Source: an uncultured Gammaproteobacteria bacterium (lineage in GTDB: Bacteria; Patescibacteriota; Patescibacteriia; UBA9934). Taken from it: a stretch of 64,000 bases of DNA. The DNA lies in NCBI GenBank assembly GCA_964344145.1, contig CAYFME010000001.1, positions 16,896 through 80,895 on the forward strand, given 5' to 3'. Under the pieces are notes generated by a model. The model saw only the letters and a program-made list of their open reading frames with translations, did not search any database and was not told the origin of the DNA. A program made the position numbers and the translations under genes. Shown piece by piece: positions 1,514-24,965 of the stretch (its first letter is position 1; every line of letters starts with the position of its first letter).

Positions 1514-2848
1514 ATGCAGCCCACAGCGGATCCAGCTATGGAGGTCCCAACGGTTGCGGTGACCGCCAATCCAACCATTTGTATTGTTGGCCTAGGGTAC
1601 GTTGGCATGCCGTTGGCCTATCATTTTGCCAAGCATGGGCTTTCAGTATTCGGGTTTGATATCTCTGCACAGAAAGTTGAACAGCTCAAGGGTGGGTATG
1701 ATCCGAGTCATGAGGTGACCGCCGATCAGCTCGCTTCCGTTGATATCACCTATAGCGTTGACCCGACCGTCATCAGCGGGGCGAACTTTGTGATCGTAGC
1801 TGTGCCAACGCCGATTGATAGCAACAATCAACCAAACCTTGTGCCGGTAGAAGCGGCCAGCAAAACCGTGGGGGAGAACTTGCGTCCAGGCAGTATTGTT
1901 GTGTTTGAGTCGACCGTGTATCCTGGCGTGACCCAGGAGGTTTGTTTGCCTATTCTGGAGAGGACTTCAGGCTTGAAAGGAGGGAAAGACTTTTTTGTCG
2001 GCTATGCCCCTGAGCGTGTGAATCCGGGCGATGAGGAGCATACGATGGATAAAATCGTGAAGGTCGTTTCTGGTCAGACGCCGGAGATATGCGACGTGAT
2101 TGCGGATGTCTACTCCGTGGTGTGCAAGGCAGGCGTGCACAAAGCATCGAGCATTCAGGTAGCAGAGGCGGCGAAGGTTATTGAAAACATCCAACGAGAT
2201 TTGAATATCGCCCTGTTTAATGAGCTGTCACTGATCTTCAACCGTCTTGGGATCGACACACATGATGTCATCGAAGCTGCTGGCACCAAGTGGAACTTTC
2301 ACAAGTATCATCCAGGTCTTGTGGGTGGTCACTGCATTGGAGTTGATCCCTATTATTTGGTCCACAAGGCGCTGCAAGTTGGTCATGAACCAAGAATTAT
2401 CACCGCCGGGCGCGCGATCAACAACGCCATGCCGCATCATGTTGCAAACGAGGTTATCAAGATGATGATTCAGGCACACAAGAAAGTGAAGGGTGCGCGC
2501 GTGCTGATTATGGGATTGACGTTCAAAGAGGATGTCAACGACGTGCGAAATTCAAAAGTGGCGGACATCATCAAGACGCTGCATGAGTATGAGGTGGAGG
2601 TGTACGGGCACGAGCCGCACGTAGACGATGAGGTGATCCGTTCTACTTTTGGGATACACACTAGTGCCTTACCTCCTGTTGAGCCGGTGGACGCCGTGAT
2701 TCTTTGCAATCGTCACAAGTGTTTTGCCGACGTGACGTATGAGCAAGTTCGTGGATTTATGCGTGACGTGCCCGTGTTGTTTGATGTGAAAGGGGCATTT
2801 CGAGACGCGGTTTTAAGGGATGAAACGGTTGTGTACAAAAGTTTATGA
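1514..2848 (+). CDS. nucleotide-sugar 6-dehydrogenase (UDP-N-acetylhexosamine dehydrogenase family, WbpA/TviB/WecC-like)
   Basis: ICIVGLGYVGMPLA NAD-binding motif, VGGHCIGVDPYY catalytic-Cys region, C-terminal UDP-binding domain. ATG at 1514 is in frame with the listed 1460 ORF and lies immediately after the upstream stop (1510-1512). Confidence 0.75.
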   Translation: MQPTADPAMEVPTVAVTANPTICIVGLGYVGMPLAYHFAKHGLSVFGFDISAQKVEQLKGGYDPSHEVTADQLASVDITYSVDPTVISGANFVIVAVPTPIDSNNQPNLVPVEAASKTVGENLRPGSIVVFESTVYPGVTQEVCLPILERTSGLKGGKDFFVGYAPERVNPGDEEHTMDKIVKVVSGQTPEICDVIADVYSVVCKAGVHKASSIQVAEAAKVIENIQRDLNIALFNELSLIFNRLGIDTHDVIEAAGTKWNFHKYHPGLVGGHCIGVDPYYLVHKALQVGHEPRIITAGRAINNAMPHHVANEVIKMMIQAHKKVKGARVLIMGLTFKEDVNDVRNSKVADIIKTLHEYEVEVYGHEPHVDDEVIRSTFGIHTSALPPVEPVDAVILCNRHKCFADVTYEQVRGFMRDVPVLFDVKGAFRDAVLRDETVVYKSL

Positions 2849-2911: not shown

Positions 2912-4861
2912 ATGAAGTTTACGATTGGTTTTGATCAGGAGGATCGCGAAAAGGTGCATAAGATGTGGGATGAAGTATTTGAAAGTGGGCAATGGAGTGA
3001 AGGGAAGTTTACAGAGCAGTTTGAGCAAACGTGGGGGGCGTACCATGGCATTGACGCGGTGGCCTTCTCCAGCTGGTCGGGTGCCGCGACAGCAACGCTT
3101 GATTTTTTCAATTTGCGAGGCAAGACCGTGTTGATGCCTGCAAATACGTTCATGGCAACACCACTTAGCGTGCTGCACATGGGCGGAAGAGTGGAATTCG
3201 TCGACTGCAATCGCGATGATTTGTGTATGAGTCTTGATGACTTACGCGTCAAGATTGATCTGTATCAACCGGCAGCCGTATTTTTGGTGCATATTGGTGG
3301 ACATATTGCGTTTCAGGTACGAGAGATTGCCGCGCTGTGTCGTGAGAAGAACATTATCCTTATTGAGGATTGCGCCCATGCGCATGGAGCCCAATGGAAT
3401 GGTCAGCGTGCAGGATCCTGGGGAGACGCAGGTATTTACTCCCTCTATGCCACGAAGTCGATTTCTACGGGCGAAGGAGGCGTGCTCGTGAGCCGCAATA
3501 AGGCGCTCATTGATTACGCAAAACAGTATCGTAACTATGGCAAGCCGGATTTTGCCGTGCGTGGGATCAATGCGCGCATGAGCGAATTCACGGCAGCGCT
3601 GGGCTGTGCGCAAATCGATCGATTGGATGATATTGTGAAATGGAAGCAGGAATATGCGCGGACCGTGCTTGATCCACAGTATCCGAATCGCGTCCACTTC
3701 CCTGCCGGGATGACGTCCGGTTACTATAAATACATTGTGTTTGATCCGATTCCCAAATCAACCGGGAAGGTGTACGACACGCCGTGTCACAGGATCTTAG
3801 GAAAACCATATGCGCTCCCGAATACGGAGTGGGTGGCAGAAAATCATTGGTGTGCGCCGCTGTATTACAAAGGAAATGACACGCAGACATCCTCACCATC
3901 TGTCGACGATATCGATCTGACTGGTTACAAAAAGGTGATGATCACGGGTGGTTCGGGATTTATTGGTTCGCATGTTGTTGAACAGCTCGTGAAAAGAGGC
4001 ATCAGGGTGCGCATTTACGATTTGATTGCCCCATCCTATCTTGACGACTTTTCGGAGTCTGAGCGCGCTCTGGTAGAGCATTACCAGGGAAGTCTTCTTG
4101 ATGAAGATCAATTGCGCATGGCCACAACAGGCATGGACGCGATTTTTCATCTGGCCGCCGTTGCCAATGTGAATGATGTTGCCGATGATCCTCTCTACGC
4201 GCAGCGGATTAACACGCAGGGAACATTTAATGTTCTGGAAGCGGCACGAAAGCAAAAGTTTTTGAAGCGCGTCGTTCTTGCGAGCACCGTGTGGGTGTAT
4301 CAAAACACCCCGCAAGGAGACCAGCCACTGGCCGAAGATGCCCCTCTTGCTCATCCTGACCACTTTTATACCGCAACAAAGATGGCCGGAGAGCAAATGT
4401 TCCTCTCCTACGCGAACATGTATGACGTTCCTGTATCGATTTTGCGCTTCGGGATCCCCTATGGAACGCGCGCTCGTCCCGCCGTCGTGAGCGCTATCTT
4501 CGTCGAGAAGGCTCTTAAGGGAGAGCCGCTTACGATCCAGGGCGACGGCAGTCAATATCGAAAGTTCGTGTACGTTGAAGATCTGGCTTTGGGATGTATT
4601 CGTGCGCTGCAGCCAGCAGGAAAGAACAAAATTTATAATCTGGAAGGAGACGTAAAGATTACCATTAAAGAAATCGCCGAAACGGTGCAGGAGCTGATAG
4701 GTAATGTACAGATTGAGTATACCGAGGGACGCAAGGCAGATTTTTCCGGAAAGGAGATTAGTAATGCGCGTGCAAAGGCGGAGATAGGCTGGTATCCGCG
4801 TATATCGTTTCGTGATGGGATGAAGCGGTATATTGACTGGCGAAAAACATTGGATCTGTGA
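2912..4861 (+). CDS. bifunctional fusion: DegT/DnrJ/EryC1-type PLP sugar aminotransferase (N) + NAD-dependent epimerase/dehydratase (C)
   Basis: The N-terminal ~300 aa carry the DegT fold signature with the lysine-containing YATKSISTGEGG segment. From ~residue 330 onward comes VMITGGSGFIGSHV (Rossmann) and YTATK (YxxxK), which is an SDR nucleotide-sugar epimerase/dehydratase domain. Confidence 0.75.
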   Translation: MKFTIGFDQEDREKVHKMWDEVFESGQWSEGKFTEQFEQTWGAYHGIDAVAFSSWSGAATATLDFFNLRGKTVLMPANTFMATPLSVLHMGGRVEFVDCNRDDLCMSLDDLRVKIDLYQPAAVFLVHIGGHIAFQVREIAALCREKNIILIEDCAHAHGAQWNGQRAGSWGDAGIYSLYATKSISTGEGGVLVSRNKALIDYAKQYRNYGKPDFAVRGINARMSEFTAALGCAQIDRLDDIVKWKQEYARTVLDPQYPNRVHFPAGMTSGYYKYIVFDPIPKSTGKVYDTPCHRILGKPYALPNTEWVAENHWCAPLYYKGNDTQTSSPSVDDIDLTGYKKVMITGGSGFIGSHVVEQLVKRGIRVRIYDLIAPSYLDDFSESERALVEHYQGSLLDEDQLRMATTGMDAIFHLAAVANVNDVADDPLYAQRINTQGTFNVLEAARKQKFLKRVVLASTVWVYQNTPQGDQPLAEDAPLAHPDHFYTATKMAGEQMFLSYANMYDVPVSILRFGIPYGTRARPAVVSAIFVEKALKGEPLTIQGDGSQYRKFVYVEDLALGCIRALQPAGKNKIYNLEGDVKITIKEIAETVQELIGNVQIEYTEGRKADFSGKEISNARAKAEIGWYPRISFRDGMKRYIDWRKTLDL

Positions 4862-5538
4862 TGTCAGATGAGCACAAGACGATACTCGTGATAGCACCCC
4901 ATCTTGACGATGAGGTGCTTGGGGTTGGAGGGACCATTGCCCGCGCGGTTGCGCAGGGATGCGACGTCCATGTGGGTTTCATCTGTAGCCGCGCCTATAA
5001 CCACCAGTACAATAGTGAGAATGATGCCAAAGAGGAGCAAGATGCACAGGCAGCGCGCCGGGTGCTTGGATACAAGAGCGCAACTTTTCTTCGATTACGT
5101 GATGAGCGGTTGTATGAGCAATTGATCGATGTGATCATCGGCATTGAGCGTATGGTGGAATCACTCCAGCCCCAAGTTGTCTACATTCCCCATCGGGGAG
5201 ACAACAATCAAGATCATCGCACCGTTTTTGAGGCCTCCATGGTGGCGCTTCGGAGTTTTTCCGCGCCTTGTGTGCGGGAGATCTATAGTTACGAAGTCGG
5301 ATCATCCACTGAGCAGGCGGCTCCCTTTACGGAGCACGCGTTCCTTCCCAACGCGTATGTGAACATTGAATCCGTCCTTGCCAAGAAGCAGCAGGCGTTG
5401 CAGTGCTATGAACGCGAACTGCGTGTGTTTCCCAACCCTCGATCCGTGAAAGGGGTGGACATCTGGGCAGCACGCCGGGGTGCGGAAGCGCATTGTCGGG
5501 CTGCGGAAGCGTTTGAGGTGATTCGCATGATCAAGTAA
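4861..5538 (+). CDS. PIG-L/LmbE-family de-N-acetylase
   Basis: ILVIAPHLDDEVLGVGGTIA, which is the PIG-L zinc-binding HxDDE-type motif. ATG overlaps the upstream TGA (GTGATG). Confidence 0.75.
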   Translation: MSDEHKTILVIAPHLDDEVLGVGGTIARAVAQGCDVHVGFICSRAYNHQYNSENDAKEEQDAQAARRVLGYKSATFLRLRDERLYEQLIDVIIGIERMVESLQPQVVYIPHRGDNNQDHRTVFEASMVALRSFSAPCVREIYSYEVGSSTEQAAPFTEHAFLPNAYVNIESVLAKKQQALQCYERELRVFPNPRSVKGVDIWAARRGAEAHCRAAEAFEVIRMIK

Positions 5539-5542
5539 CGGT

Positions 5543-6361
5543 ATGGAAGAAGGACGCATCGTTTTTATCGGCGCCGAGCGTGTGGGAAAGGCCGTTGCAC
5601 AAGCGCTCCTTGCGCAAGGAGCGCCCATTTGTGCCATTGTGACCGCGCACGAGGATCGTGCGCCACACATTGCAGATTATGTTTCTTTTCGTGATCTGGA
5701 AGAGCAGTATCCGCATGTGGACTTCCATTATGTGCGAGAGTCCAAGAGTGCGCAGGTGCGCGACTGTATTGCAGGCTATGCCCCCGAGTGTATTTTGGTG
5801 GCGAGCTGGTCTAATATCATTGCCCCAGATATTCTCTCGCTGCCTGAAAAAGGCGTCGTTGGCATGCACTACTCGTTGCTGCCCGATCGCCGCGGCGGGG
5901 CTCCGCTCAATTGGGCGATTATCGATGGGATTCCGGCGACCGGCATCACGCTGTACTATCTGGATGATGGAATTGATACAGGAGATATCATCGCGCAGCA
6001 GGATGTTCCTATTGATGCGGAGGATACGGTGAAGGATCTTCTTGATAAAATCATTGAGGCTGCTCCGTCACTTTTTTGCCGCCTTATTGATGATATCCTC
6101 GATGGCACGGCCCCGCGGATACCACAAAACGACGCGCAGGCTACCACAACGTCGCGTCGACGGCCAGCGGATAGCGCCATTGATTGGACGATGGATCTTG
6201 ATGCATTGCATCGATTTATCCGCGCCGTGGCCCCTCCCTATCCTGCGGCGTTTACGACACTCAAAACAAAACGCCTCGTGTTGACGAGCGCGAAGAAAGC
6301 GGGGGAGGGAAACCGTCTTTCCGTTACCGGTTACATTGAAGAGTATGACCACGAAGGATAA
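5543..6361 (+). CDS. sugar N-formyltransferase (Fmt/ArnA-N-like formyl_transf family)
   Basis: SWSNII...HYSLLPDRRGGAPLNWAIIDG, which is the formyltransferase HxSLLPxxRG active-site motif. Size and context fit a nucleotide-sugar N-formyltransferase. Confidence 0.75.
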   Translation: MEEGRIVFIGAERVGKAVAQALLAQGAPICAIVTAHEDRAPHIADYVSFRDLEEQYPHVDFHYVRESKSAQVRDCIAGYAPECILVASWSNIIAPDILSLPEKGVVGMHYSLLPDRRGGAPLNWAIIDGIPATGITLYYLDDGIDTGDIIAQQDVPIDAEDTVKDLLDKIIEAAPSLFCRLIDDILDGTAPRIPQNDAQATTTSRRRPADSAIDWTMDLDALHRFIRAVAPPYPAAFTTLKTKRLVLTSAKKAGEGNRLSVTGYIEEYDHEG

Positions 6362-7064
6362 TCATGCGCTGACCATCGTTGTCTGTTGTTTTAATGGGGA
6401 AGCGCACATCGAGGCGTGCCTCGCGTCACTGGCAAACCAAACAAGGGACGATTTTTCCGTGCTCATCATTGATGATGGATCGAACGATCGCTCAGCTATC
6501 ATTGCAGAGAAATTTGCCCAAACGCGTGCGGGATGGACACTGCGGGCTCATCCGGAAAATGCTGGACTGGTCGCGCGGTGCAATGAAGCGATCGCAACGA
6601 TTGCTACTCCGTTCTTTGCTCGTCTCGATGCAGATGATCTGTTTACTCCATACGCCGTGGAAAAAATGTATGTAGAGATGGCACGCATCGATGATGCGGC
6701 ATTTACGCTCTTTCAGCGATGGGATCTCTGGGAGGATGATACGCGTGCAATGGACGTACACGATGATCTCTATGAATGGATTGCCGCTGGAACGCTCTTT
6801 CGTACGGATGCGGTTCGGGCCGTTGGTGGATACGATAAAGAATTTTGGGAAGAGTATGATTTGTATCTCAAGTTATTGACGCAAGGGATGCGCTATCACG
6901 TTTCTCCCTTTAGTGTATACTACTACCGCCGCGGGCAGGAGAGCATGACGCAAAACCGCGCGGCAACGCTCAAGGGGTTCCGTTGTTTGGAGCAAAAATG
7001 GGGGTCCGCGGTGTTGCAGCAATACGGCAATGCTGATCGGATTCTCTCTTATTATCAACAATAA
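6336..7064 (+). CDS. family 2 glycosyltransferase
   Basis: LTIVVCCFNGEAHIEACLASLANQT...LIIDDGS. This is a GT-A N-terminus with a DxD-type motif region. The start may be the internal ATG at 6345. Confidence 0.75.
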   Translation: MKSMTTKDNHALTIVVCCFNGEAHIEACLASLANQTRDDFSVLIIDDGSNDRSAIIAEKFAQTRAGWTLRAHPENAGLVARCNEAIATIATPFFARLDADDLFTPYAVEKMYVEMARIDDAAFTLFQRWDLWEDDTRAMDVHDDLYEWIAAGTLFRTDAVRAVGGYDKEFWEEYDLYLKLLTQGMRYHVSPFSVYYYRRGQESMTQNRAATLKGFRCLEQKWGSAVLQQYGNADRILSYYQQ

Positions 7065-7067
7065 CGC

Positions 7068-7892
7068 ATGTACGTCCATATGAAACGACCTATCGTGATC
7101 GCAGAGATTGGAGAAAATTTTATCGGGGACCTTGATATCGCCCGTCGATTGATTGAGCAGGCAGCAGCAGCAGGGGCAGATTTTGCCAAATTTCAATCGT
7201 ATCGTCCGGAAACATTTGATAAGAGCGATCCGGAATATGATTGGTTCTGCAAAGTTTCTCTCTCTGATGACGATCATCGCATGCTGGCCGCACACGCGCA
7301 AAAGCACGGGATCGCCTTCATGAGTTCACCCTTTAGCTTAGAGCGCGCCCGTTTTCTCTGTGAGGGGATGGGTTGCAAAGAAATAAAGATCGCCTCTGGG
7401 ATGATGATGAACTTCCCCCTGCTCGATTATGTGAACGAGCATGCCCAGACGGTCTTTCTCTCAACCGGCATGGCAACCATTGAAGAGATTCGCGAAGCGC
7501 TCGCCCATCTTTCAAAGGTTCCGAAGGTGTATATTCTTCATTGTGTCACGCAATATCCATGCGCCGATGCTGACGCAAATCTTTCGGCAATAAACACACT
7601 GCAACGCACGTTTCCTGAGCACGAAATCGGCTATTCTGATCACACAGAGGGTGTTCTGGCACCCGTTATCGCGCATGCCATGGGAGCACGCGTGATTGAA
7701 AAGCACTTTACGTTCGACAAGAATGCAACCGAGGGAACGGATCATATTCTTTCAGCACTACCCGAAGAGCTTGGACAGATGATTACAGATATGCGCCGGG
7801 TAGAGCAGATGTATGGAAGCGGAGAAAAGGCTCCAAGGAAATCAGAGCAAGCCATTATCGATTTCGTGCGCAATCGCTTTTTAGAAGTATGA
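7068..7892 (+). CDS. NeuB-family ulosonic acid synthase, TIM-barrel domain only (no C-terminal SAF domain)
   Basis: IAEIGENFIGDLDIARRLIEQAAAAGADFAKFQSY matches the NeuB/PseI/SpsE N-terminus. At 274 aa it is too short to include the SAF domain. Confidence 0.7.
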   Translation: MYVHMKRPIVIAEIGENFIGDLDIARRLIEQAAAAGADFAKFQSYRPETFDKSDPEYDWFCKVSLSDDDHRMLAAHAQKHGIAFMSSPFSLERARFLCEGMGCKEIKIASGMMMNFPLLDYVNEHAQTVFLSTGMATIEEIREALAHLSKVPKVYILHCVTQYPCADADANLSAINTLQRTFPEHEIGYSDHTEGVLAPVIAHAMGARVIEKHFTFDKNATEGTDHILSALPEELGQMITDMRRVEQMYGSGEKAPRKSEQAIIDFVRNRFLEV

Positions 7893-8575
7893 TTGCCGGC
7901 ATTATTCAAGCTCGCATGGGGTCGACTCGTCTTGCCGGCAAGATGAACATGGAGATGCAGGGCGTTGCTCTTCTGACGTGGGTGCTGCGGCGTGTGAAGC
8001 GTGCAACACGTCTGGACGATGTTGTCTTGGCACTGCCAGATACAGCTGAAAATGATGTGCTGCACGCCATTGGTGATGAGGAAGGGGTGCGCGTTGTGCG
8101 TGGTGACGAGCAGGATGTGCTCGGTCGTTTTTTGAAGGCGGCATCGGTCGTGGGTGCGCAAACCATCGTGCGTATCTGTGCGGATAATCCATTGATCGCT
8201 CCCGAGGAGATTGATCGGCTCGTTCTTTTTTTTCAGAAGCATCCGTGTGACTACGCCTACAATCATATTCCGACAGATGATTACCCGGGACCGGACGGAC
8301 TTGGCGCGGAAATAGTGACCCGCGCCGCCCTCGATGCGAGTGCCGCGAGCACGGATTCCGATGATCATGAACATGTCACGCGCTATGTGAAGAGGCATCC
8401 GGAAACGTTCCGCCTGTTGGCAGCTCCTGCGCCGGCCGCCCTTCAGGGAATTCGTCATATGAAGTTTGATGTGGATACGCAGGCGGATTTCGATGATCTC
8501 ACCGCATTCACCTCTGGACTCACTCCACAAGCGACGCTTGAAGATATTATTGCGCAGGTACACGCAAACGCATGA
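7889..8575 (+). CDS. CTP_transf_3-family cytidylyltransferase (SpsF/PseF-like CMP-sugar synthetase)
   Basis: IIQARMGSTRLAGK glycine-rich NTP-binding motif. It is ATGA-coupled to the upstream NeuB-like gene, a classic SpsE/SpsF-type pairing. Confidence 0.7.
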   Translation: MIAGIIQARMGSTRLAGKMNMEMQGVALLTWVLRRVKRATRLDDVVLALPDTAENDVLHAIGDEEGVRVVRGDEQDVLGRFLKAASVVGAQTIVRICADNPLIAPEEIDRLVLFFQKHPCDYAYNHIPTDDYPGPDGLGAEIVTRAALDASAASTDSDDHEHVTRYVKRHPETFRLLAAPAPAALQGIRHMKFDVDTQADFDDLTAFTSGLTPQATLEDIIAQVHANA

Positions 8576-10287
8576 GCACTATCCGATTTTTTCTTAACCT
8601 CCTCGAGCCATTTCGCCCCCTTGCGATTGTACTTTTCGTTGCCATCCTGTGCTCGGCATTGTTTGAGAGTATTGGGATCGCTATGCTGGTTCCGCTGTTT
8701 GAGACGATTCTAAACGAAGGTGGGGAATCGCAACTGTCCAATGCCCTTGCGCCCGTGCTGCGATTGTTCGGTGCCCAGGAGAATGTTCCCGTTATTGCCG
8801 TGATCGTCCTGGTGATGTTTCTTGCAAAGAACGGGTTTCTTATTGCGACCGAATGGCTAAAGAGCAAGTTCATCTACCAGTTCCGCGCTTATTGGATGGA
8901 GCGCATTCACGCTTACTATATGCGCATGCCATATGGGGAATTGGTGCAGAAAAAACAAGGAACACTTATCGATACGTTGATCACGGAAACAAATAAAGGG
9001 GCGAGCGGTTTAGTGAACTTGGTGCAGTTCGTGACCGGTGTGGTGATGGTGACGGTTTTTTACACATTGCTTTTACTTGCGCATCTGGAGATGACTCTGA
9101 TTATGACCGCTGTCGCGCTCGCGTTGTATTTTGGCGTCGTGCGCACGATGAAGCGGTACTCAAAGGCTGTGGGCAAACAAGAGATCTTTTTTCAGCAGTC
9201 GCTCCATGAAGAGGCGGCAGAGAATATTCGTGCCACACGCCAAATTCGTACATTTGATCTGGAGGCCAGTGTGATCAGACGGTTTAACGAAACATTGCAT
9301 GCGCTGACGAAAATGCTCATCCGCTGGGATGTTGTGCGCGCTATTCCCAAGCCCACCGCCGAAGCCATGATTGTTGTGCTCTTTGTTGGCGTTGTGATGT
9401 GGTTGCAGCAGTATGATCCGGCACTCATGCGCACGCTGGTGCCGACCCTTGGAGTGATTGTTATTGTGGCGCAGCGCCTCTTCAATCATTTAACACAGCT
9501 GATTGTCCATCGCATGGTGGTGATTAGCTTCATGCCAGTTTTCGATTTGTTGCAGCGCGAGTTACGCGGGTTTCATTCCCTTCCCCCAGATACGCAAAAC
9601 GCACAAGCATGCACGCGTCTTTCCGACGACATTGCCTTTGCGGGGATGTGTTTTCAGTATCCGGGCAAGGAGCCACTCTTTGACAACGTGAGCTTCCAGA
9701 TTCCCCACGGGAAAACGACCGCGCTGATTGGAGCATCCGGTTCAGGAAAATCAACTATTGCCGACCTGCTCTTGGGGCTTTATGCGCCAACGAGTGGTGC
9801 GATCCTTGTCAACGGAATTGATCTGGAAACGATTGCCCCCACAACATGGCGACGGATGATCGGATTTGTGAGTCAGGATAATTTTCTCTTTCACACGAGC
9901 ATTGGCGAAAACATTCGCATCGGAACGCCCGAGGCGACGGACGAGGACATCCAGCGCGTGGCACGGCTCGCCAATGCCCATGATTTTATCACCCAGTTTC
10001 CCGAAGGATACGACACGATTGTTGGCGATGAAGGCGTGATGCTCTCGGGAGGACAGCGGCAGCGCATTGCGATCGCGCGTGCGTTGCTTCATAACCCTGA
10101 CATCCTTATTTTTGATGAGGCGACGAGCGCGTTGGACTTGGAGACCGAGCGCGCCATTCAACAAGAGATCGGTGCGTTGGCAAAAGGCAAGACGGTGATC
10201 ATCATTACGCATCGTCAAGAGGTACTTGCACACGTGGACCGCATCATCCGCATTGTTGACGGCGCCGTGCACATAGAAGATGTATGA
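8572..10287 (+). CDS. ABC exporter, fused permease + ATPase (MsbA/lipid-flippase-like)
   Basis: Six predicted TM helices N-terminally. Walker A GASGSGKST, signature LSGGQRQRIAIARAL, Walker B ILIFDEATSALD. Confidence 0.85.
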   Translation: MSTIRFFLNLLEPFRPLAIVLFVAILCSALFESIGIAMLVPLFETILNEGGESQLSNALAPVLRLFGAQENVPVIAVIVLVMFLAKNGFLIATEWLKSKFIYQFRAYWMERIHAYYMRMPYGELVQKKQGTLIDTLITETNKGASGLVNLVQFVTGVVMVTVFYTLLLLAHLEMTLIMTAVALALYFGVVRTMKRYSKAVGKQEIFFQQSLHEEAAENIRATRQIRTFDLEASVIRRFNETLHALTKMLIRWDVVRAIPKPTAEAMIVVLFVGVVMWLQQYDPALMRTLVPTLGVIVIVAQRLFNHLTQLIVHRMVVISFMPVFDLLQRELRGFHSLPPDTQNAQACTRLSDDIAFAGMCFQYPGKEPLFDNVSFQIPHGKTTALIGASGSGKSTIADLLLGLYAPTSGAILVNGIDLETIAPTTWRRMIGFVSQDNFLFHTSIGENIRIGTPEATDEDIQRVARLANAHDFITQFPEGYDTIVGDEGVMLSGGQRQRIAIARALLHNPDILIFDEATSALDLETERAIQQEIGALAKGKTVIIITHRQEVLAHVDRIIRIVDGAVHIEDV

Positions 10288-11768
10288 AGACGCGCGAGTT
10301 CACCGATTATATTGCCGAGGATACACAGGTAACACGACTGATTTATGACACGCTCCTTGCGGCGTATCGAGAATCGAGTCGCGATAGATCCCCTGCGGAA
10401 AATACATTCGGTCTGTTTTTTTGCGAGGTGTTGAAACTCCTCACGGGGACGGTGCTGCGCGCGCGCGAGTTGGATCATGAACTCGTGTCGCAAGAGATGA
10501 AACGTCGCACGCTCACGCGATGGCCGTATATCGGCTACGGAGATTTGCTCCACGGGGTTTCTACGGAGAATAAAACATACGGCCGTACGCAAGGTATGCG
10601 TGCACGACCGCGAGCGGTGCATCGCGGCGTCGAATGGCTCAGTACGCTGAGCGGTCTTTCAAAACGCAAAACCGTTGGGCTCATGAACACAGGGAATAAT
10701 CGGGCCCTTGCGCGCGCCTGCTTGTCGCGCGGATACTCCATACGATTTCTCGATGCGCGTCCGATTGCCCACCGCATGCCCCATCTTGACATCGACCTAG
10801 ACAACATAATGGCGGCGATCGATTCAGTGCATGCGCAAATCACCCTTCCTCTCGCGCCGGACGTATATAAAACGATTCTACGCCGCCATGTGGAAAGCAT
10901 CGTTGAAAGCGGAATGCCGCGTCATCCCGGTGTTGATGTGCTCGTGCGCGGCTCCGGATCGGAATTCATGAATCGGGTGCTTTCTCACGTCGCAGCGCTG
11001 CACAACATCCCCATTATCGATATTGTGCACGGCGAGGGATTCGGCATCTTAGATGAACATACGTTTGGTATTGGGGAACAGTATCTTGCTGACGCGGTCG
11101 TCGGCTACGGAGCGTTGTATGGCCAGCAGTCACAACAGTACTCACTCACACGGTATACGGATGATATGCCACAATACCTATCGACGAAGAGCGATACGCA
11201 GGCAGGTACAGGGCAACACGTCGAATCGCTTGATCTCGCTTCTCAAAAGAACGTGTTCTATTTTCCTACCTCACTTTCCGGAGATCGGTATCGATACGGG
11301 CCGTATCGTGACATGCCGGACGCCTTGTATCTACAATGGCAGCAGCATCTCACCACCCTTTTTGATCCATTGTTTATCAAGGCACATCCAAAAGAGCGAT
11401 TTCATGAGGCGCTGCGCGACACGCATGCACAGTACATCACCGAGGATCTTCGTACGATGATTGACCGTGTGGAGGTGTTCATTTTCGACTATGTTTCCTC
11501 GGCGTTTTTCTTGGCAGCGGCAACAAACAAGCCGATCATTTTTCTTGATCTCGGATTGCGCAACATCGCGCCGCACGCGCGGAAGTTGATGCAAGAGCGG
11601 ACGCACTACATTGATGTCGCGGCGTTTGGACATCTCGATCGCTCCACTCTCCTTCATGCGCTCGCCGATATACAGGAGAAAAAACACGCATTAACACATG
11701 CATGTATCACAGACAGTACAGCGAGTGGACGTTTAGAAACCATTTTTCAATTGGTGGAAGCATTATGA
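10284..11768 (+). CDS. TagF-like (CDP-alcohol/CMP-sugar phosphotransferase, Glyphos_transf-like) polymerase candidate
   Basis: The C-terminal region KAHPKE ... VFIFDYVSSAFFLAAATNKPIIFLDLG resembles the K-HP and TDYSS...KPIIFY motifs of TagF/TarL-type enzymes. The remaining ~350 aa are unassigned. Confidence 0.4.
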   Translation: MKTREFTDYIAEDTQVTRLIYDTLLAAYRESSRDRSPAENTFGLFFCEVLKLLTGTVLRARELDHELVSQEMKRRTLTRWPYIGYGDLLHGVSTENKTYGRTQGMRARPRAVHRGVEWLSTLSGLSKRKTVGLMNTGNNRALARACLSRGYSIRFLDARPIAHRMPHLDIDLDNIMAAIDSVHAQITLPLAPDVYKTILRRHVESIVESGMPRHPGVDVLVRGSGSEFMNRVLSHVAALHNIPIIDIVHGEGFGILDEHTFGIGEQYLADAVVGYGALYGQQSQQYSLTRYTDDMPQYLSTKSDTQAGTGQHVESLDLASQKNVFYFPTSLSGDRYRYGPYRDMPDALYLQWQQHLTTLFDPLFIKAHPKERFHEALRDTHAQYITEDLRTMIDRVEVFIFDYVSSAFFLAAATNKPIIFLDLGLRNIAPHARKLMQERTHYIDVAAFGHLDRSTLLHALADIQEKKHALTHACITDSTASGRLETIFQLVEAL

Positions 11769-12847
11769 CGGTAAACGTACAGGATGATATTCCATTGCTT
11801 GATGCGCTCATGCAGGACATGGAGCGTTATCCTGCGCATCAACCCACGAATTTCTGGAAGCCCTATGTGGCGCGCATTGATCATGCCATCCGTCAGGACG
11901 GTCTGTCCGCTTTTCGCAGCAATCGCGCCATTATCAAAGGCTATGAGTACACGACGCTTCCGGGGGAGAACCCGATGCGGCGTAATCGCTTCGCGCGCTT
12001 TGCGGACACATGCATGCGCGTACCACCACTTTCCTTGCTGCGTAAACCATATCAAGACATGTTCTACAAACTGCAAGAGCAGGTGCGAGAGGGTATCGCG
12101 CGGGAGTATCGATTGCTCTATCAGTACTGCGCAACCGAGCCTCGGATGCGAACGATTTTGAAGGCGGTGCACGAGCAGGGGGTGGGCGATCCGGTCACGA
12201 TTTCGATAGACGAACGGGCGTACTCAGAGAATTTGCTCAATCATATCCCCGCGGTGTCGCTCATGACCACGGTACGTCCGCTTGCACAGACGAAACGTAT
12301 CCTCGAGATTGGCGGCGGGTACGGTGTGTTTGCACAGATCATCACGCGATTGCAGCAGGATGTACTCGACTATCTTGTCATGGTCGATATCCCTCCGGTG
12401 CTGTATGTTGCTACGCAATATCTTAAAGCCCTTTTTCCTGATCGCGTACTTGATTATCGCGCCGTGCGTGATGTGCAGACCATTGATGCGCGCATGTTGC
12501 AAGGAAAGATTTTGCTGATCCCGCCATGGATGCTGGAGCGCCTTGCGTGCGATTTTGACCTTCTGTGGAGTGTGGGGGCATTTCAAGAGATGGAAAAAGA
12601 TCGCGTGGAGATGTACCTCGATCAGGGGGCAAAGCGGTGTGCTTCCATCTTCACGTCAGGCCTTATTCGTGGGCATGCGCCGGGTGCGGGCGGGCAGCGC
12701 GAGCCCATTGCGTTCGATTGGATTGTTGATGCCATTTGCGCGCGTGGGTATACTCATGTACCGCTTCCTTCCGATGTCCCGGAACGCACTGCCCTGCGCG
12801 CGTGCGTAGCGAACTACGATTTTGGCTATTTTGAAAAGGTAACTTAA
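11765..12847 (+). CDS. hypothetical protein, possible SAM-dependent methyltransferase-like fold
   Basis: ATG at 11765 forms an ATGA overlap with the upstream stop. The internal ILEIGGGYGVFAQI resembles a glycine-rich SAM-binding motif. No further recognisable signature. Confidence 0.35.
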   Translation: MTVNVQDDIPLLDALMQDMERYPAHQPTNFWKPYVARIDHAIRQDGLSAFRSNRAIIKGYEYTTLPGENPMRRNRFARFADTCMRVPPLSLLRKPYQDMFYKLQEQVREGIAREYRLLYQYCATEPRMRTILKAVHEQGVGDPVTISIDERAYSENLLNHIPAVSLMTTVRPLAQTKRILEIGGGYGVFAQIITRLQQDVLDYLVMVDIPPVLYVATQYLKALFPDRVLDYRAVRDVQTIDARMLQGKILLIPPWMLERLACDFDLLWSVGAFQEMEKDRVEMYLDQGAKRCASIFTSGLIRGHAPGAGGQREPIAFDWIVDAICARGYTHVPLPSDVPERTALRACVANYDFGYFEKVT

Positions 12848-12861
12848 TTCCGAATTGCATT

Positions 12862-13629
12862 ATGGAAACACCAAAGCAACATGATGTCGTGTGGGACGAG
12901 CAAAAAATTGCAGATTATTGGAATATTTGGGGAAACTTGAAACCAAAGAGTCCTTGGTTTGGCGAAAAAGCCGGTACGTGGATAAGGAAAGAGGTAGAAG
13001 AACTAAGGCCACATTTTAGCGGGAAGTCCCCTAAGGTGTTGGACATTGGTTGCGGTTCCGGCGTTCTTTTGCACAAGACGTTTGCTCCAATGGGATTTGA
13101 TTGTTATGGGGTCGACCTTTCACCGGAGCGCATGGAGCGCGCGCGCCGAGACTATCCGGAGATGACCTTTGCCGTCGGATCGATGAAGTCGTCGCCGTTT
13201 CCGGATGATACCTTCGATCTGGTGGTTTCCACGCAAATGGTAGAGCATTTGCTTGATGATGATCTTGAGCCCTCGTTTGCAGAGATGTCGCGCCTTGTAA
13301 AACCGGGCGGGCTCGTGATGATTACGACGCGATATGATGAAGACATGAGCCAGGGGCATAACGTCTGTCCGGATTGTCACGCCGTCTATCGTTACTCGCA
13401 GCACTTGCAATCGTTTGACATTCCGCGCATGACTGCCCTACTTGAGGGTGTGGGTCTTTCCCCATTGATCGTGAAACGGAGTCGTTGCCGGGATCATTTG
13501 CGCGACATGATCCCACAGCGTCGCATCCCGCTCGTTCGTCATTTAGGCCCCCTGTTGTATTGGCTGTTTGCCGATAAGCTGGATCGCGAGATGGGAAAGT
13601 ATCTTTACGCGGTAGGGAAGAAGGAATAG
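12862..13629 (+). CDS. class I SAM-dependent methyltransferase
   Basis: VLDIGCGSGVLL motif I, LVKPGGLVMITT post-II motif, and a CPDCHAVYRY zinc-ribbon-like insert. Confidence 0.75.
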   Translation: METPKQHDVVWDEQKIADYWNIWGNLKPKSPWFGEKAGTWIRKEVEELRPHFSGKSPKVLDIGCGSGVLLHKTFAPMGFDCYGVDLSPERMERARRDYPEMTFAVGSMKSSPFPDDTFDLVVSTQMVEHLLDDDLEPSFAEMSRLVKPGGLVMITTRYDEDMSQGHNVCPDCHAVYRYSQHLQSFDIPRMTALLEGVGLSPLIVKRSRCRDHLRDMIPQRRIPLVRHLGPLLYWLFADKLDREMGKYLYAVGKKE

Positions 13630-14463: not shown

Positions 14464-15030
14464 ATGATTATGCTATCATTTAGCAAAAGGGATATGAGTA
14501 ACGTTTGTAACGATAAATTTAAGAATCTTGTCCTCTACGTCCTATCTCACGAAGATTATAGGGAGGGAGGTATTAAGAAGTTGAATAAACTCCTGTACTT
14601 TATTGATTTCTATTTTTACAGAGACCACGAGGAGCTCATCTCGAACGTAGACTACGCAAAGGCAGACATGGGGCCTGTGGTTGACGGGTATAAGACTATT
14701 TTCAGTGCATTAGCCGAAGATGGCGTGATTGAGCAGGTGTCGAACGTGGGCTTTGTGGCGTATAAGGCGAACCAAGCACCAGATTTGAGTGATTTTTCTT
14801 CAGATGAGATCGCCCACATCGGACGAGTACTCGATCAGTATGGGAAACTTTCTGGAAGTGACTTGGAGTTAATCTCTCATCAGCAGCAACCGTGGGTGCT
14901 TACTGAAAGCATGGGAGATAAGATTGATCCTGATTTAGCACTCTTAATTGCAGATAGTGATAATGAAGATGTGGAAGTTCAAAATCAGGATTTGAAGAAC
15001 GAACTGATTGATCTTGCAAATTCTGTGTAG
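14464..15030 (+). CDS. Panacea-domain (DUF4065, SocA-like) putative antitoxin
   Basis: KKLNKLLYFIDFYFYRDHEELISNVDYAKADMGPVVDGY matches the DUF4065/Panacea core (KLxKLLYF...GPV..). The gene is AT-rich relative to its flanks. Confidence 0.6.
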   Translation: MIMLSFSKRDMSNVCNDKFKNLVLYVLSHEDYREGGIKKLNKLLYFIDFYFYRDHEELISNVDYAKADMGPVVDGYKTIFSALAEDGVIEQVSNVGFVAYKANQAPDLSDFSSDEIAHIGRVLDQYGKLSGSDLELISHQQQPWVLTESMGDKIDPDLALLIADSDNEDVEVQNQDLKNELIDLANSV

Positions 15031-15368: not shown

Positions 15369-16427
15369 TTAACTCTTTTTCGCAACAATCCGCAAGACAT
15401 CACGATTCGGTCCGTACTGGAAATCAGGATGCTGTAATAATGTGTAGAAATCGGGCGCGCGGTGTTTTGCAAGCATCGTAAGCCAGCCGCGCGTTGCGCG
15501 CTGTCCAAGCACCATACGGCTCGCGTTTAAGATCAACTGTTTCTTTTGCTGGCGGGCATGCGTTCTTTTAAGATTCGCATGCGTTGTTTTTGACGAGTGC
15601 ACTCCCTCTTTAACGTCCGTGGTCATTTCTTGCGCCGCCGCCGTGGATTCGAGGGATCGTACCGTGCGCTTCACATCTTCTTGTTTGCCCGCGCTGCCGA
15701 TAAATTGTGTTTCCAAGCCGGCGTTTGCGCAGACGCGCTCGAGTGATTCCATGCTGAAGAAGGAGAGGTGGGGAATTGAGTAATACTGATAGCGTGTCAG
15801 ATCTTCATTTGGGACTTCGCAAATAAAGATACCGCCTGGTGCGAGGAGCCGTGCCACATGCGCGACAATCCCCGGAACATCGTGTGCATTGAAATGCTCC
15901 AGCGAGTGGGACATGACAATCACGCGAAACGTATTGTCCGGAAGCTCGGCAATGGGCTCCGGACCGAACAATTGAGGAACAATCGTTGCGCCAAGTTTTT
16001 GTAGTCGAGGATGAGCGTCTTCCTGCGGCTCAACCGCCCAATACTCCATCGGCACATTAAGGCGCGTACATGTATGGAAGAAGTGCCCGGGACCAGGACC
16101 GATATCCAAAAGTTTATCCGTTGGTTTTGGATCAACATACTGGCGCATGAGCAGTACCTGCGCGAGCGCGCGCGGCTCAAAGTGAAATGGATTGCCAACA
16201 TTCAAGAGGGGATTTTTCCCCCCTTTCATGGCTCTGCCGGTGTAGGCTTTTGTGTAGAAGGCATCGAGGTCCTCCTCTGCAATGCGCTCCCCGCCGAAGC
16301 TAAACCGACAGTTGTTGCACGAATAGATGCTCAGCTGACGAAAGGAGGACGGCATGTCCATGGTGCCGGTGTAGTAGTCTCTTTTCCTCTCCGTATTTGT
16401 TGGCGTGGTACAGATGGGGCAGTTCAT
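15369..16427 (-). CDS. class I SAM-dependent methyltransferase with N-terminal CxxC zinc ribbon
   Basis: Start chosen at the ATG (16427) preceded by GGAG. MNCPICTTP...CNNCRF zinc ribbon, LLDIGPGPGHFF motif I, LAPGGIFICEVPNED. Confidence 0.7.
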   Translation of the reverse strand: MNCPICTTPTNTERKRDYYTGTMDMPSSFRQLSIYSCNNCRFSFGGERIAEEDLDAFYTKAYTGRAMKGGKNPLLNVGNPFHFEPRALAQVLLMRQYVDPKPTDKLLDIGPGPGHFFHTCTRLNVPMEYWAVEPQEDAHPRLQKLGATIVPQLFGPEPIAELPDNTFRVIVMSHSLEHFNAHDVPGIVAHVARLLAPGGIFICEVPNEDLTRYQYYSIPHLSFFSMESLERVCANAGLETQFIGSAGKQEDVKRTVRSLESTAAAQEMTTDVKEGVHSSKTTHANLKRTHARQQKKQLILNASRMVLGQRATRGWLTMLAKHRAPDFYTLLQHPDFQYGPNRDVLRIVAKKS

Positions 16428-16549
16428 GGGAATCTCCGTATTATGAATGCTGGGAGAGTATAGCAACAGGACGGAGACCATGGCAATACTCCTGTTTCAG
16501 AACAATTGACAGGCTTTCTTTGTATGCTACCATCGAATCCACAATACCT

Positions 16550-23310: not shown

Positions 23311-24965
23311 GCAAAATCATCGCGCTCTATCGACCAACGCGCATTGATCGTCTCCAAGCACGTATTGCCCACCTGTGTGGGCGGACGGTTTATGAGTGGG
23401 CAAATCCGGATGCCCCGCATCGCATTGCCTTTCCACCGAGCCGTGAATGGACACCCATCATGCTCGATGCGCGCGAACGACTCGCCCGCTACCGTGATCG
23501 GCACTGGCAGCATGCTCCGGATGTGTACATGCGTGATTATGTCTGCAAAACATACGACCTGTTGATTGGAGACTATACCGCCTTCCGAGTTGCTCTCGCC
23601 GAGCAACATGCTGACGATCATGTTCGGATCGTGGGATCACGCGTATTGCGGCGTATTCATGATGGCGAAGCACCAACGCGTTCTCTGATCTTTTTTCTTG
23701 GACTGCCGGTGGCTTTTTTCCTGTTTGTACGCACACTGTTGCGCGCCTCGCTCCTCTCTCTTATGGCAAAGGGTGATGTTGAGCATCCCGAGGTTCTTTA
23801 TGTGCGCAAAAAAGTGTATCCGGATTTGTCGGTGAGTGCGCGATTAGGGGCGGCGGTGCGCGCACAGGATCTGACCTTTGCCGGATCCTTTCTTGCGTTC
23901 GGGCGAGCAAAAGAGCGCTACGGCTTTTTCTTTCTCAATGCGTTTGCTGGTGCCGGGCGTCTTGTCAGACTCGCTGCGTGGCGTGTTGCGCGGACGATGG
24001 TCAGTGATGCACGGTTTTTTTATCGCGCCGGGGTGCCGGTACGATTGTTTTCAACGTATTTGAGGCACGCACTACACGCGGCGATGATCACAGGGCTTAG
24101 GAGTCGGTTGCTTACCGGTGTGCTTGTCGACAAGCCCTTTTTTGTTTTGCTTGCACGGTACAAGCGTGCAGAGCAACGGATGGTGAGTCTAAATGAGTTT
24201 TTCTCTTTTTATCCGTATCGCGGATTTGATTACAATCATTTAGACATTTATTATTCCATGAATGCCATTGATGCCGCACAACAAAACAAACATGGGGGCC
24301 GTATCCACGAGACACGCCATATTCCATTTTTTCGGCAGCATCAAGTCAGTACCGGAAAGGGGATTTCAAAAGATCTTCAGGTGCTTCTTGCGCAATACAA
24401 AACGCGCGTGTTGGCAACCACAACGCAAATCGCCACGCGCGTCTATTCGCAATGGTCCACTGATGAGCTGTGTGCATTCATTCGGACGATCGGGGAGCTT
24501 GCTCGTGCCAATCCCAATCAGTTGTTCATTATCAAAGGAAAAAAAGGCGAACTTCGCGCCATGCCCGCTGATGAACTTCGCGCCATCGAAGCGCAGCCGA
24601 ACGTCTATGTTATCCATTCCGATGTGCCGCGCATGCTCGAGTATAATCAATTTGAAGATCTGCTCCCCAAGGCTAACGTCTTGATCTCCATGGCACATCA
24701 ATCGACAACGGTCTGGCAGGCGATCGCATCTGGGATTCCAGCGATTGCCGTCAACGACGTGCATCCAAAGAGCTTCCTCTCCGAATACAAGCATCTTGAG
24801 GTTCCTCTGGACGCGCTTGCAGACGCATTAACGTATTGGTTGACGGTAACCCCGGAGGCATGGCAAGCATTTCGGGAACAACTTGTCCGGCAGGTGAATA
24901 TCAGCGATGCCGATGGTATGCAGATCGTCGCAAAGGATATATTGAAGATTCAGGAAGATGTATGA
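23307..24965 (+). CDS. hypothetical protein, possibly TagF-like/GT-B polymerase
   Basis: ATGA coupling at both ends. The C-terminal region (IIKGKKGE...VYVIHSDVPRMLEY...VLISMAHQSTTVWQAIASGIPAIAV) loosely resembles the C-terminal nucleotide-binding half of TagF-like enzymes. Weak. Confidence 0.3.
   Translation: MSKIIALYRPTRIDRLQARIAHLCGRTVYEWANPDAPHRIAFPPSREWTPIMLDARERLARYRDRHWQHAPDVYMRDYVCKTYDLLIGDYTAFRVALAEQHADDHVRIVGSRVLRRIHDGEAPTRSLIFFLGLPVAFFLFVRTLLRASLLSLMAKGDVEHPEVLYVRKKVYPDLSVSARLGAAVRAQDLTFAGSFLAFGRAKERYGFFFLNAFAGAGRLVRLAAWRVARTMVSDARFFYRAGVPVRLFSTYLRHALHAAMITGLRSRLLTGVLVDKPFFVLLARYKRAEQRMVSLNEFFSFYPYRGFDYNHLDIYYSMNAIDAAQQNKHGGRIHETRHIPFFRQHQVSTGKGISKDLQVLLAQYKTRVLATTTQIATRVYSQWSTDELCAFIRTIGELARANPNQLFIIKGKKGELRAMPADELRAIEAQPNVYVIHSDVPRMLEYNQFEDLLPKANVLISMAHQSTTVWQAIASGIPAIAVNDVHPKSFLSEYKHLEVPLDALADALTYWLTVTPEAWQAFREQLVRQVNISDADGMQIVAKDILKIQEDV

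Follow-up and report, generated by a model that had tools for sequence, protein, structure and literature searches.

Within a 64,000-nucleotide stretch of contig CAYFME010000001.1 (hereafter the window) we found an open reading frame (ORF) that joins a DegT-type aminotransferase, dependent on pyridoxal 5'-phosphate (PLP), to an extended short-chain dehydrogenase/reductase (SDR) in one 649-aa chain. We read this fusion, with slightly better than even confidence, as a two-enzyme module in which the SDR makes the 4-keto form of a nucleoside diphosphate (NDP)-linked N-acetylhexosamine (HexNAc) and the DegT half aminates it, the surrounding cassette then leading to a cytidine monophosphate (CMP)-activated nonulosonic acid (NulO). 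The substrate, the regiochemistry and the order of the steps are as we infer them.

The single-chain arrangement, which an earlier note on this DNA had proposed, was confirmed. According to the ORF listing of the window, neither a stop codon nor a frameshift lies between the two halves, and Pfam called both domains: DegT_DnrJ_EryC1 (PF01041) at residues 12-251, with 205.8 bits for a cut-off of 19.8, and Epimerase (PF01370) at residues 342-577, with 160 bits for a cut-off of 20.9. The PF01041 match ends at position 250 of the 360 of the profile, and in the AlphaFold2 model the C-terminal subdomain of the DegT half is present and compact, with a high predicted local distance difference test score (pLDDT). 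In the DegT half, K182, lying in YATKSISTGEGG, aligns with the lysine region QQGK-VLTAGEGG of BtrR (2C7T), and the aspartate that pairs with the pyridine nitrogen is present as D153 (EDCAHAHG). The C-terminal half has every feature by which an extended SDR is recognised, namely the profile match, the TGxxGxxG motif and Thr459 followed by Y486-x3-K490 (YTATK), so that the catalytic YxxxK announced by the earlier note is found on alignment as well. D370 (4019-4021) fits NAD and not NADP as the cofactor.

It is very improbable that this ORF is an assembly or sequencing artefact joining two genes. Split neighbours are the rule among the loci that we collected, and the protein database contains several seemingly frameshifted actinobacterial 'fusions', yet the identical 649-aa protein is encoded on contigs assembled independently from two separate runs (ERR2281801 and ERR2281800; L001 and L002) and is present in NCBI and ENA records. 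Furthermore, four diverged relatives (P0002-P0005; 70, 66, 62 and 60% identity) are fused in frame with the same architecture and intact domain ends, their linkers varying in length and sequence, and in the window the ancestral start codon of the SDR has become Lys340, behind a linker of 19 residues. The frameshifted proteins (P0006, P0009-P0012 and P0101) were rejected as evidence of fusion, because their last ~70 DegT residues read like an out-of-frame translation; these odd ends are probably indel errors in long-read metagenome-assembled genomes (MAGs). P0007, P0008 and P0014, by contrast, are in frame.

The origin of the fusion could be followed by comparison with locus L058 (a contig of GCA_030674435.1), an 11-gene operon that is syntenic with the window gene for gene but has DegT (324 aa) and SDR (320 aa) as separate genes with a spacer of 34 nt between them. 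The order of this operon is DegT, SDR, PIG-L, formyltransferase, GT2, NeuB, CTP_transf_3, ATP-binding cassette (ABC) transporter, two unknowns and a methyltransferase. The fusion shares 68% identity with the DegT protein of L058 (residues 1-323) and 65% with its SDR. In L058 the DegT protein ends in ...HWCVPLYYKGHEI-stop and the SDR begins with MKILITGG; the window junction reads ...HWCAPLYYKG-NDTQTSSPSVDDIDLTGYK-KVMITGG. Judging from these junctions, the fusion appears to have arisen when two translationally coupled genes lost the stop codon and the spacer that parted them, stop, spacer and start having turned into the 19-residue linker. In the same line, at L003 (10943..11065) both genes lie in the same frame and are parted by a single stop codon without any spacer, and the junction of P0007 is that of L003 minus the stop.

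Adjacent DegT and SDR domains in separate ORFs were found at 51 loci from species-representative genomes, in the order DegT-then-SDR in about 40 MAGs of Solirubrobacterales/Thermoleophilia and in the order SDR-then-DegT in three MAGs of Planctomycetia and one acidobacterial MAG. An exhaustive search of 1.84 billion representatives with phmmer returned a clean full-length fusion only in the window's own cluster (P0004), together with a distant second fusion, P0244 (705 aa, 39% identity). In a rough neighbour-joining tree fused and split members were interleaved, and therefore the fusion has arisen, or has been lost, at least three times. On these sequences the DegT-SDR fusion appears rare yet recurrent, the window clade, P0007/P0008 and P0244 representing a minimum of three separate events. 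P0282, P0326 and P0344, candidates for reverse-order fusions, were discarded after Pfam showed SDR-SDR tandems and no DegT domain. The DegT-SDR architecture is already present in public databases without annotation, so the kind is known and the variant is new. The earlier note had also attached meaning to the aminotransferase standing ahead of the SDR, as a reversal of pathway order. This does not survive comparison, because the fusion copies the prevailing gene order, and the domain order thus holds no mechanistic information: the unfused L058 and the ~40 actinobacterial loci have DegT first too, a canonical unfused DegT/PglF-like pair in the window (50588..53777) also places the aminotransferase first, and the Planctomycetia have the reverse.

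The association between the two enzymes extends far beyond the fused proteins. With the SDR half as query, thousands of stand-alone proteins of ~315 aa were retrieved at 55-68% identity from many phyla, with generic annotation only, and this family has the invariant motifs ST.WVY (unchanged in 128 members), P.H.YTATK and LR.GIPYG.RAR. On each of the six stand-alone contigs looked up, the family SDR directly followed a DegT gene. The repeated fusion and the strict adjacency suggest that SDR and DegT catalyse consecutive steps. Recurring neighbours of the pair were PIG-L, WbqC or formyltransferase, NeuB, CTP_transf_3, radical S-adenosylmethionine (SAM)/SPASM proteins and PseG or PseG-like hydrolases. 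PIG-L is kept beside the pair in L054, L058, L059 and L042, and the co-location with NeuB and CTP_transf_3 is conserved in L058, L054, L059, L062 and L064. PseG or PseG-like hydrolases occur in L010, L062 and L064; that of L064 passes the curated NCBIfam equivalog cut-off (165 bits, cut-off 153.6), which we used throughout to define membership of a named enzyme family. None of the SDRs read in the first 30 kb of the window (1-30 kb) or in L010, L062, L063 and L064 showed a canonical 4,6-dehydratase motif, and no canonical 4,6-dehydratase is annotated beside the SDR in L058-L060.

Additionally, a different setting was found in the Actinomycetota, where the family SDR is fused C-terminally to a glycosyltransferase of the monogalactosyldiacylglycerol (MGDG)-synthase type (L057 11077..13770, 897 aa; also L003-L034) and the DegT gene precedes it. 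These pairs have no NeuB or cytidylyltransferase within 10 kb and have a Polysacc_deac_1 deacetylase nearby. No other sugar-modifying oxidoreductase lies beside the pair in these loci, and therefore no candidate but the SDR is left as the source of the keto group used by DegT; the fusion of the SDR to a glycosyltransferase in turn points to a glycosyl donor as its substrate and to a nucleotide-sugar product that would serve directly in glycosyl transfer. Taken as a whole, the arrangement resembles a compact amino-sugar glycolipid system.

Around the fusion in the window, the PIG-L de-N-acetylase and the formyltransferase follow directly, as the earlier note had stated, and NeuB and a CMP-transferase stand in one operon with the fusion, the combination by which we recognised a NulO cassette (Table 1). 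The N-formylated amino sugar proposed in the earlier note remains a reasonable product. The simple amino-deoxy-hexose route implied there had to be given up, since NeuB and the cytidylyltransferase continue the cluster, which is therefore a nonulosonic-acid cassette. Several of these proteins scored below the cut-off of their closest models: NeuB reached 265 bits against NeuB_NnaB (cut-off 400), the upstream dehydrogenase 435 bits against the TviB model (cut-off 592), and the formyltransferase, closest to the Arn-type sugar formyltransferases, 194 bits against PRK06988 and 153 bits against ArnA, both under their cut-offs. The NeuB protein is short, without the SAF domain of the canonical sialic, legionaminic and pseudaminic acid synthases, and has the same form in L058, L054, L060 and L010. 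After the CTP_transf_3 gene come an ABC exporter, two unknowns and a methyltransferase. The two unknowns are a conserved pair on the + strand, orf494 (10284..11768, 494 aa) and orf360 (11765..12847, ~360 aa), with orthologues in L058; orf494 had no Pfam or PDB match, and orf360 gave faint methyltransferase-like matches only. Promoter and terminator scans of the window from 1 to 14 kb did not rise above chance level.

Table 1. Features of the DegT-SDR fusion and of its gene cluster in the window.
Feature	Coordinates	Strand	Evidence and remarks
TviB/WbpO-like nucleotide-sugar 6-dehydrogenase, candidate UDP-GlcNAc 6-dehydrogenase	1538..2848	+	TIGR03026, 397 bits, passes; 64 nt before the fusion
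Fusion ORF, 649 aa, DegT-linker-SDR	2912..4861	+	ATG-to-stop ORF; stop overlaps the PIG-L start
DegT/DnrJ/EryC1-type PLP aminotransferase domain, residues 1-321	2912..3874	+	PF01041, E 1.5e-60; short 'pair-type' form with compact C-terminal subdomain
K182 codon, predicted PLP Schiff-base Lys (YATK-SISTGEGG)	3455..3457	+	Alignment to BtrR 2C7T
Linker NDTQTSSPSVDDIDLTGYK, 19 residues, residues 322-340	3875..3931	+	Comparison with the L058 junction; pLDDT <50 at residues 323-328
Extended SDR (NAD-dependent epimerase/dehydratase fold) domain, residues 341-649	3932..4858	+	PF01370, E 8.6e-47
TGxxGxxG NAD-binding motif, T345-G352	3944..3967	+	Invariant in the SDR family
T459-V460-W461, catalytic Thr followed by Val-Trp	4286..4294	+	T459 aligned to S121 of PelX 6WJB
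H484-F-Y486-T-A-T-K490, catalytic Tyr/Lys preceded by family-invariant His	4361..4381	+	Family alignment
PIG-L/LmbE-family de-N-acetylase, motif PHLDDE	4858..5538	+	PF02585, E 1e-21
Formyltransferase, N- and C-terminal domains, HYSLLPDRRG	5543..6361	+	PF00551/PF02911
Small soluble GT2-family glycosyltransferase-like protein	6336..7064	+	PF00535; conserved in L058; beside NeuB in L007
Short NeuB-family nonulosonic-acid synthase, 274 aa, no SAF domain	7068..7892	+	PF03102, E 3.7e-71
SpsF-like CTP_transf_3 cytidylyltransferase, candidate CMP-NulO synthetase	7889..8575	+	PF02348, E 8.5e-22

In the pathway that we propose, the C-terminal SDR would oxidise C4 of a nucleotide-activated HexNAc with NAD+ to give a 4-keto sugar, and the N-terminal DegT domain, with PLP and an amino donor, would convert the keto group into an amine. 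The adjacent formyltransferase would formylate the new amine and PIG-L would free the 2-amine, after which NeuB and the cytidylyltransferase would yield a CMP-nonulosonic acid that bears a single formamido group beside a single free amine. This product matches the one proposed for a related cluster of Ca. Kuenenia stuttgartiensis (KSMBR1_RS09820-09860), which has the order LegB, nucleotidyltransferase, LegC, PIG-L, WbqC, formyltransferase, NeuB, cytidylyltransferase and nucleotidase (bioRxiv 10.64898/2026.04.20.719630). The SugarBase preprint links that cluster to CMP-NulO residue masses of 260.101 (C10H16N2O6), 274.116 and 288.132, interpreted as diamino NulOs that carry a single formyl group beside one free amine, together with O-methylation (10.64898/2026.04.20.719630), and an earlier glycoproteomics preprint reported fragments 261/275/289 for NulO-bearing glycan variants. 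Like LegB/LegC and the Kuenenia cluster, the window has an SDR and DegT head cassette accompanied by PIG-L, a formyltransferase, NeuB and an SpsF-like cytidylyltransferase. Unlike in Kuenenia, its SDR is not a LegB, lacks the dehydratase acid/base residues and is fused to the aminotransferase; the Kuenenia cluster has in turn WbqC and a nucleotidase, and no nucleotidase was found in the window.

Several results weigh against this pathway. The fusion missed the equivalog cut-offs of LegB, RmlB, GalE, PseC and LegC alike: the SDR half scored 143.6 bits against RmlB (TIGR01181, cut-off 365.1), 128.8 against LegB (TIGR04180, cut-off 475) and 128.5 against GalE (TIGR01179, cut-off 262.3), and the DegT half 135.9 bits against PseC (TIGR03588, cut-off 423.5) and 127.0 against LegC (TIGR04181, cut-off 420). 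Val460-Trp461 stand in place of the acid/base residues of every characterised class of 4,6-dehydratases, and the usual RxxNxxG nucleotide-sugar motif has lost its Asn in the SDR family (LRFGIPYG). An NDP-sugar hydrolase (PseG, LegG/NeuC) was found neither in the window between 1 and 30 kb nor in L058, and phmmer with locus-derived queries gave no PseG-like or Epimerase_2-like ORF above 20 bits anywhere in the window; orf494 and orf360 are candidates for the missing hydrolase or for a NulO transferase. In L064 the DegT protein adjoining the SDR is canonical and PseC-like, and other SDRs are present. The window also holds a canonical bacillosamine-type set (49307..53777, + strand) with a PglC-like phosphoglycosyltransferase of 197 aa, a DegT gene (50588..51787, 399 aa) and a 665-aa membrane 4,6-dehydratase of the PglF/WbpM type (51780..53777), and this unfused pair at 50.6-53.8 kb could feed the NulO route instead of the fusion. 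Moreover, the AlphaFold2 model, built on a 56-sequence alignment, is confident for both halves (mean pLDDT 89.5) and points to domains that are independent of each other and flexibly tethered, without a defined interface. Lastly, no characterised member of either subfamily came to light in the literature, which was searched for Pcryo_0617, for cassettes of the WbqC/LmbE/NulO kind and for any DegT-SDR fusion already described. With respect to the channelled route of the earlier note, which had only the fusion behind it, the model gave no backing, as the linker has pLDDT <50 and the predicted TM-score (pTM) is 0.58. Channelling by fusion nevertheless seems plausible and would help with labile keto sugars or with an unfavourable net oxidation of the WbpB/WbpE kind.

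The active site also affects what the SDR may be called. In the known 4,6-dehydratases the catalytic Thr/Ser is followed at once, at the 'yellow wall' position, by Asp-Glu, by Asp-Lys or by a lone Glu, and SQD1/Agl3 dehydrate without such acid/base residues (PMC8987622). The label of dehydratase given to the SDR by the earlier note was therefore not borne out, with Val460-Trp461 following the catalytic Thr and every NCBIfam equivalog cut-off missed. The invariant His484 could in principle act as a base, in which case the SDR might still dehydrate and take away the 6-hydroxyl in the manner of LegB/PseB. As a speculative and on balance doubtful proposal, the subfamily marked by ST.WVY and P.H.YTATK would consist of non-dehydrating C4 oxidases, the pair adding an amine with the 6-hydroxyl kept, and the cassettes would lead to 5,7-diamino NulOs with a 9-hydroxyl ('7-amino sialic acids'), which in the window would be N-formylated and have a free amine; in a variant, the DegT-SDR pair would aminate an already CMP-activated ulosonic acid. 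If the SDR is indeed non-dehydrating, these would be a new class of sialic-acid-like sugars (9-hydroxy diamino), so far undescribed.

Other readings of the fusion place it on a different route or at a different step. It is unlikely, with some evidence in its favour, that instead of the NulO precursor the fusion produces a distinct nucleotide amino sugar, destined for the same polysaccharide and derived from a uridine diphosphate (UDP)-HexNAc-uronic acid provided by the upstream TviB-like dehydrogenase, through C4 oxidation with or without decarboxylation, 4-amination and N-formylation, as in ArnA/ArnB or in Pcryo_0617 with its aminotransferase. A Ugd fragment and a uronate-epimerase-like SDR lie upstream of the fusion on the same strand together with that dehydrogenase, a close TviB-like homologue (504 bits) is located four genes upstream of the fused gene in L056, and the formyltransferase is closest to the Arn type. 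In addition, Foldseek against the PDB gave template modelling (TM) scores of 0.84-0.90 between the SDR and extended-SDR structures, with the decarboxylating EvdS6 (8SK0) and Pcryo_0617 (8VR2) among the top neighbours, and UXS, decarboxylating as well, is among the best PDB matches of the SDR. However, no sugar 6-dehydrogenase was found near the pair in L058, L059, L060, L062 and L064, and the pair co-varies with PIG-L, NeuB and CTP_transf_3 and not with dehydrogenases. Decarboxylating SDRs of the ArnA/UXS type have the active-site motif Thr-Ser-Glu, and at its position the SDR reads T-V-W. The SDR half scored only 46 bits against PRK11908 (cut-off 294) and the DegT half 76.3 against ArnB (NF008658, cut-off 631), and ArnA was outside the best 25 NCBIfam matches of the fusion.

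We consider it improbable that the two enzymes act late, on a CMP-ulosonic acid made first, whose hydroxyl the SDR would oxidise and DegT would aminate, with formylation and de-N-acetylation taking place at the level of the CMP-sugar. This would suit the minimal cassettes of the window and L058, which lack an NDP-sugar hydrolase and a canonical dehydratase, the loss of the conserved Asn of the UDP-sugar-binding motif, and the HAD phosphatase that adjoins NeuB in L054 and suggests a sugar-phosphate route. The best PDB sequence matches of the DegT half also include enzymes acting on nucleotide-free substrates, BtrR and KdnA (Kdo8N route), and formylated and de-acetylated NulOs have been reported already at the CMP level (10.64898/2026.04.20.719630). 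Yet the actinobacterial pair occurs without NeuB or cytidylyltransferase in its vicinity and with its SDR fused to a lipid glycosyltransferase, and the PseG or PseG-like hydrolases of L064 and L062 imply UDP-linked intermediates. Nor, to our knowledge, has any extended SDR been described that acts on a CMP-NulO. A little more improbable again is an SDR that serves as an epimerase or ketoreductase after or beside DegT, the keto substrate coming from another enzyme such as the canonical PglF-like dehydratase encoded elsewhere in the window. Among PDB sequences the SDR is indeed best matched by C4-epimerases, PelX (6WJB, 130.6 bits) and T. maritima GalE (4ZRM, 128.1 bits), and also by UXS, and L064 has an extra epimerase-like SDR and one other SDR. 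Neither the sequence matches nor the fold matches in the PDB discriminate function, and 8RDG proved to be a GDP-sugar 4-epimerase. Against this role, the bulky Trp461 occupies a position where epimerases have Ser, Ala or Thr and would be expected to hinder rotation of the 4-keto intermediate, the actinobacterial DegT and SDR-glycosyltransferase loci hold no other keto-making enzyme, and two enzymes fused so repeatedly and kept so strictly adjacent are likely to act consecutively. The readings as an ArnA-like decarboxylase and as a plain epimerase were given less weight on these grounds, and the pathway in which the SDR supplies the 4-keto sugar that DegT aminates is the most likely one.

With regard to known systems, this pathway follows the logic of PseB/PseC and PglF/PglE, where an NAD-dependent SDR, acting as a UDP-GlcNAc 4,6-dehydratase, provides the 4-keto nucleotide sugar for amination by a 4-aminotransferase of the DegT type. 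PseB and PglF are, however, separate proteins of the Polysacc_synt_2 type with Asp-Lys (PMC8987622), whereas the SDR of the window is a classical extended SDR with Thr-Val-Trp and is fused. It also resembles ArnA/ArnB and Pcryo_0617 (8VR2), in which an extended SDR carries out a net C4 oxidation and a DegT 4-aminotransferase acts next, followed in Arn by an N-formyltransferase. ArnA fuses a formyltransferase to the SDR, whereas the window fuses an aminotransferase to it, and both ArnA and Pcryo_0617 decarboxylate uronic acids, a type to which the window SDR is weakly similar. ArnA is an example of how the three activities can be combined in one chain, and fused enzymes for consecutive sugar-nucleotide steps are familiar from ArnA and RmlC/D. 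In WbpB/WbpE, GnnA/GnnB and NtdC/NtdA a hydroxyl is oxidised without deoxygenation and transaminated at once, the tight coupling pulling the unfavourable oxidation, which provides a rationale for adjacency and fusion here if the SDR does not dehydrate. The oxidoreductases of these WbpB/WbpE-type systems are members of the GFO/IDH/MocA family with C3 as their site of action, in contrast to the extended SDR of the window, which is presumed to act at C4. Finally, the fold and the Ser/Thr-Tyr-Lys triad are common to the SDR and to the C4-epimerases of the PelX/GalE type, but Trp461 and His484 are specific to its family, and its partner is a DegT enzyme in every locus examined, to which an epimerase would give no substrate.

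The fusion can be regarded as a natural 'Rosetta stone' that puts a widespread extended-SDR subfamily and the neighbouring DegT on consecutive steps, and it offers a single, easily expressed polypeptide for identifying that step. The identity of the step decides between ordinary 9-deoxy sugars of the legionaminic/pseudaminic type, made via a non-canonical dehydratase, and a new class of amino-sialic acids; if the SDR were an ordinary dehydratase, this would be merely a rare gene fusion in a known kind of pathway. The window cluster is a second, differently built 'deacetylase plus formyltransferase' nonulosonic-acid cassette after the one recently proposed for the anammox bacterium Kuenenia, where neutralisation of surface charge has been suggested as the role of the free amine. 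Beyond what the earlier note claimed, the greater interest lies in a strongly conserved subfamily of SDRs whose active site is not canonical, whose partner is a DegT enzyme and whose NulO cassettes have no canonical dehydratase.

Some further features were observed in the loci of relatives. Radical-SAM genes of the SPASM type are located near the pair in L060 (10106..11161), L062 (9987..11270), L064 (4061..5143) and L063 (1742..2824), and a radical-SAM, B12-binding protein is encoded beside the family pair in L010 (11848..14016); these neighbours could account for deoxygenation or C-methylation. A second group of small SDRs (290-307 aa; motifs ASTYWVYG, ASTYDLYG and ASSYRVYG) occurs with PseG-like and WbqC genes in larger clusters (L064 6851..7765, L010 7880..8803 and L062 13036..13908). 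L059 encodes a NeuB-CTP_transf_3 fusion of 587 aa (11391..13154), and L063 encodes a CTP_transf_3-MbnB/TglH-like fusion of 495 aa (16045..17532) and an Epimerase_2-Glyphos_transf fusion of 683 aa (5806..7857).

Elsewhere in the window, a region at ~13.6-16.4 kb breaks the same-strand cluster with a minus-strand ORF (15369..16481) and separates two sugar modules, between which a SocA/Panacea antitoxin-domain protein is also encoded (14464..15030, + strand). An 850-aa ORF (16397..18949, + strand), whose flavin amine-oxidase/UDP-galactopyranose-mutase-like N-terminal half is fused to a NeuB with SAF domain, heads the second nonulosonic-acid module. It is followed by adh_short (18942-19706), 2-hydroxyacid-dehydrogenase-like (19700-20845), CTP_transf_3 (20849-21532), aldo/keto reductase (21529-22413) and FkbM methyltransferase (22426-23310) genes. 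In the same glycan region, a 747-aa protein (24836..27079, + strand) combines a LicD-family segment with DUF4147 and MOFRL domains (glycerate-kinase-like) in an unusual fusion.

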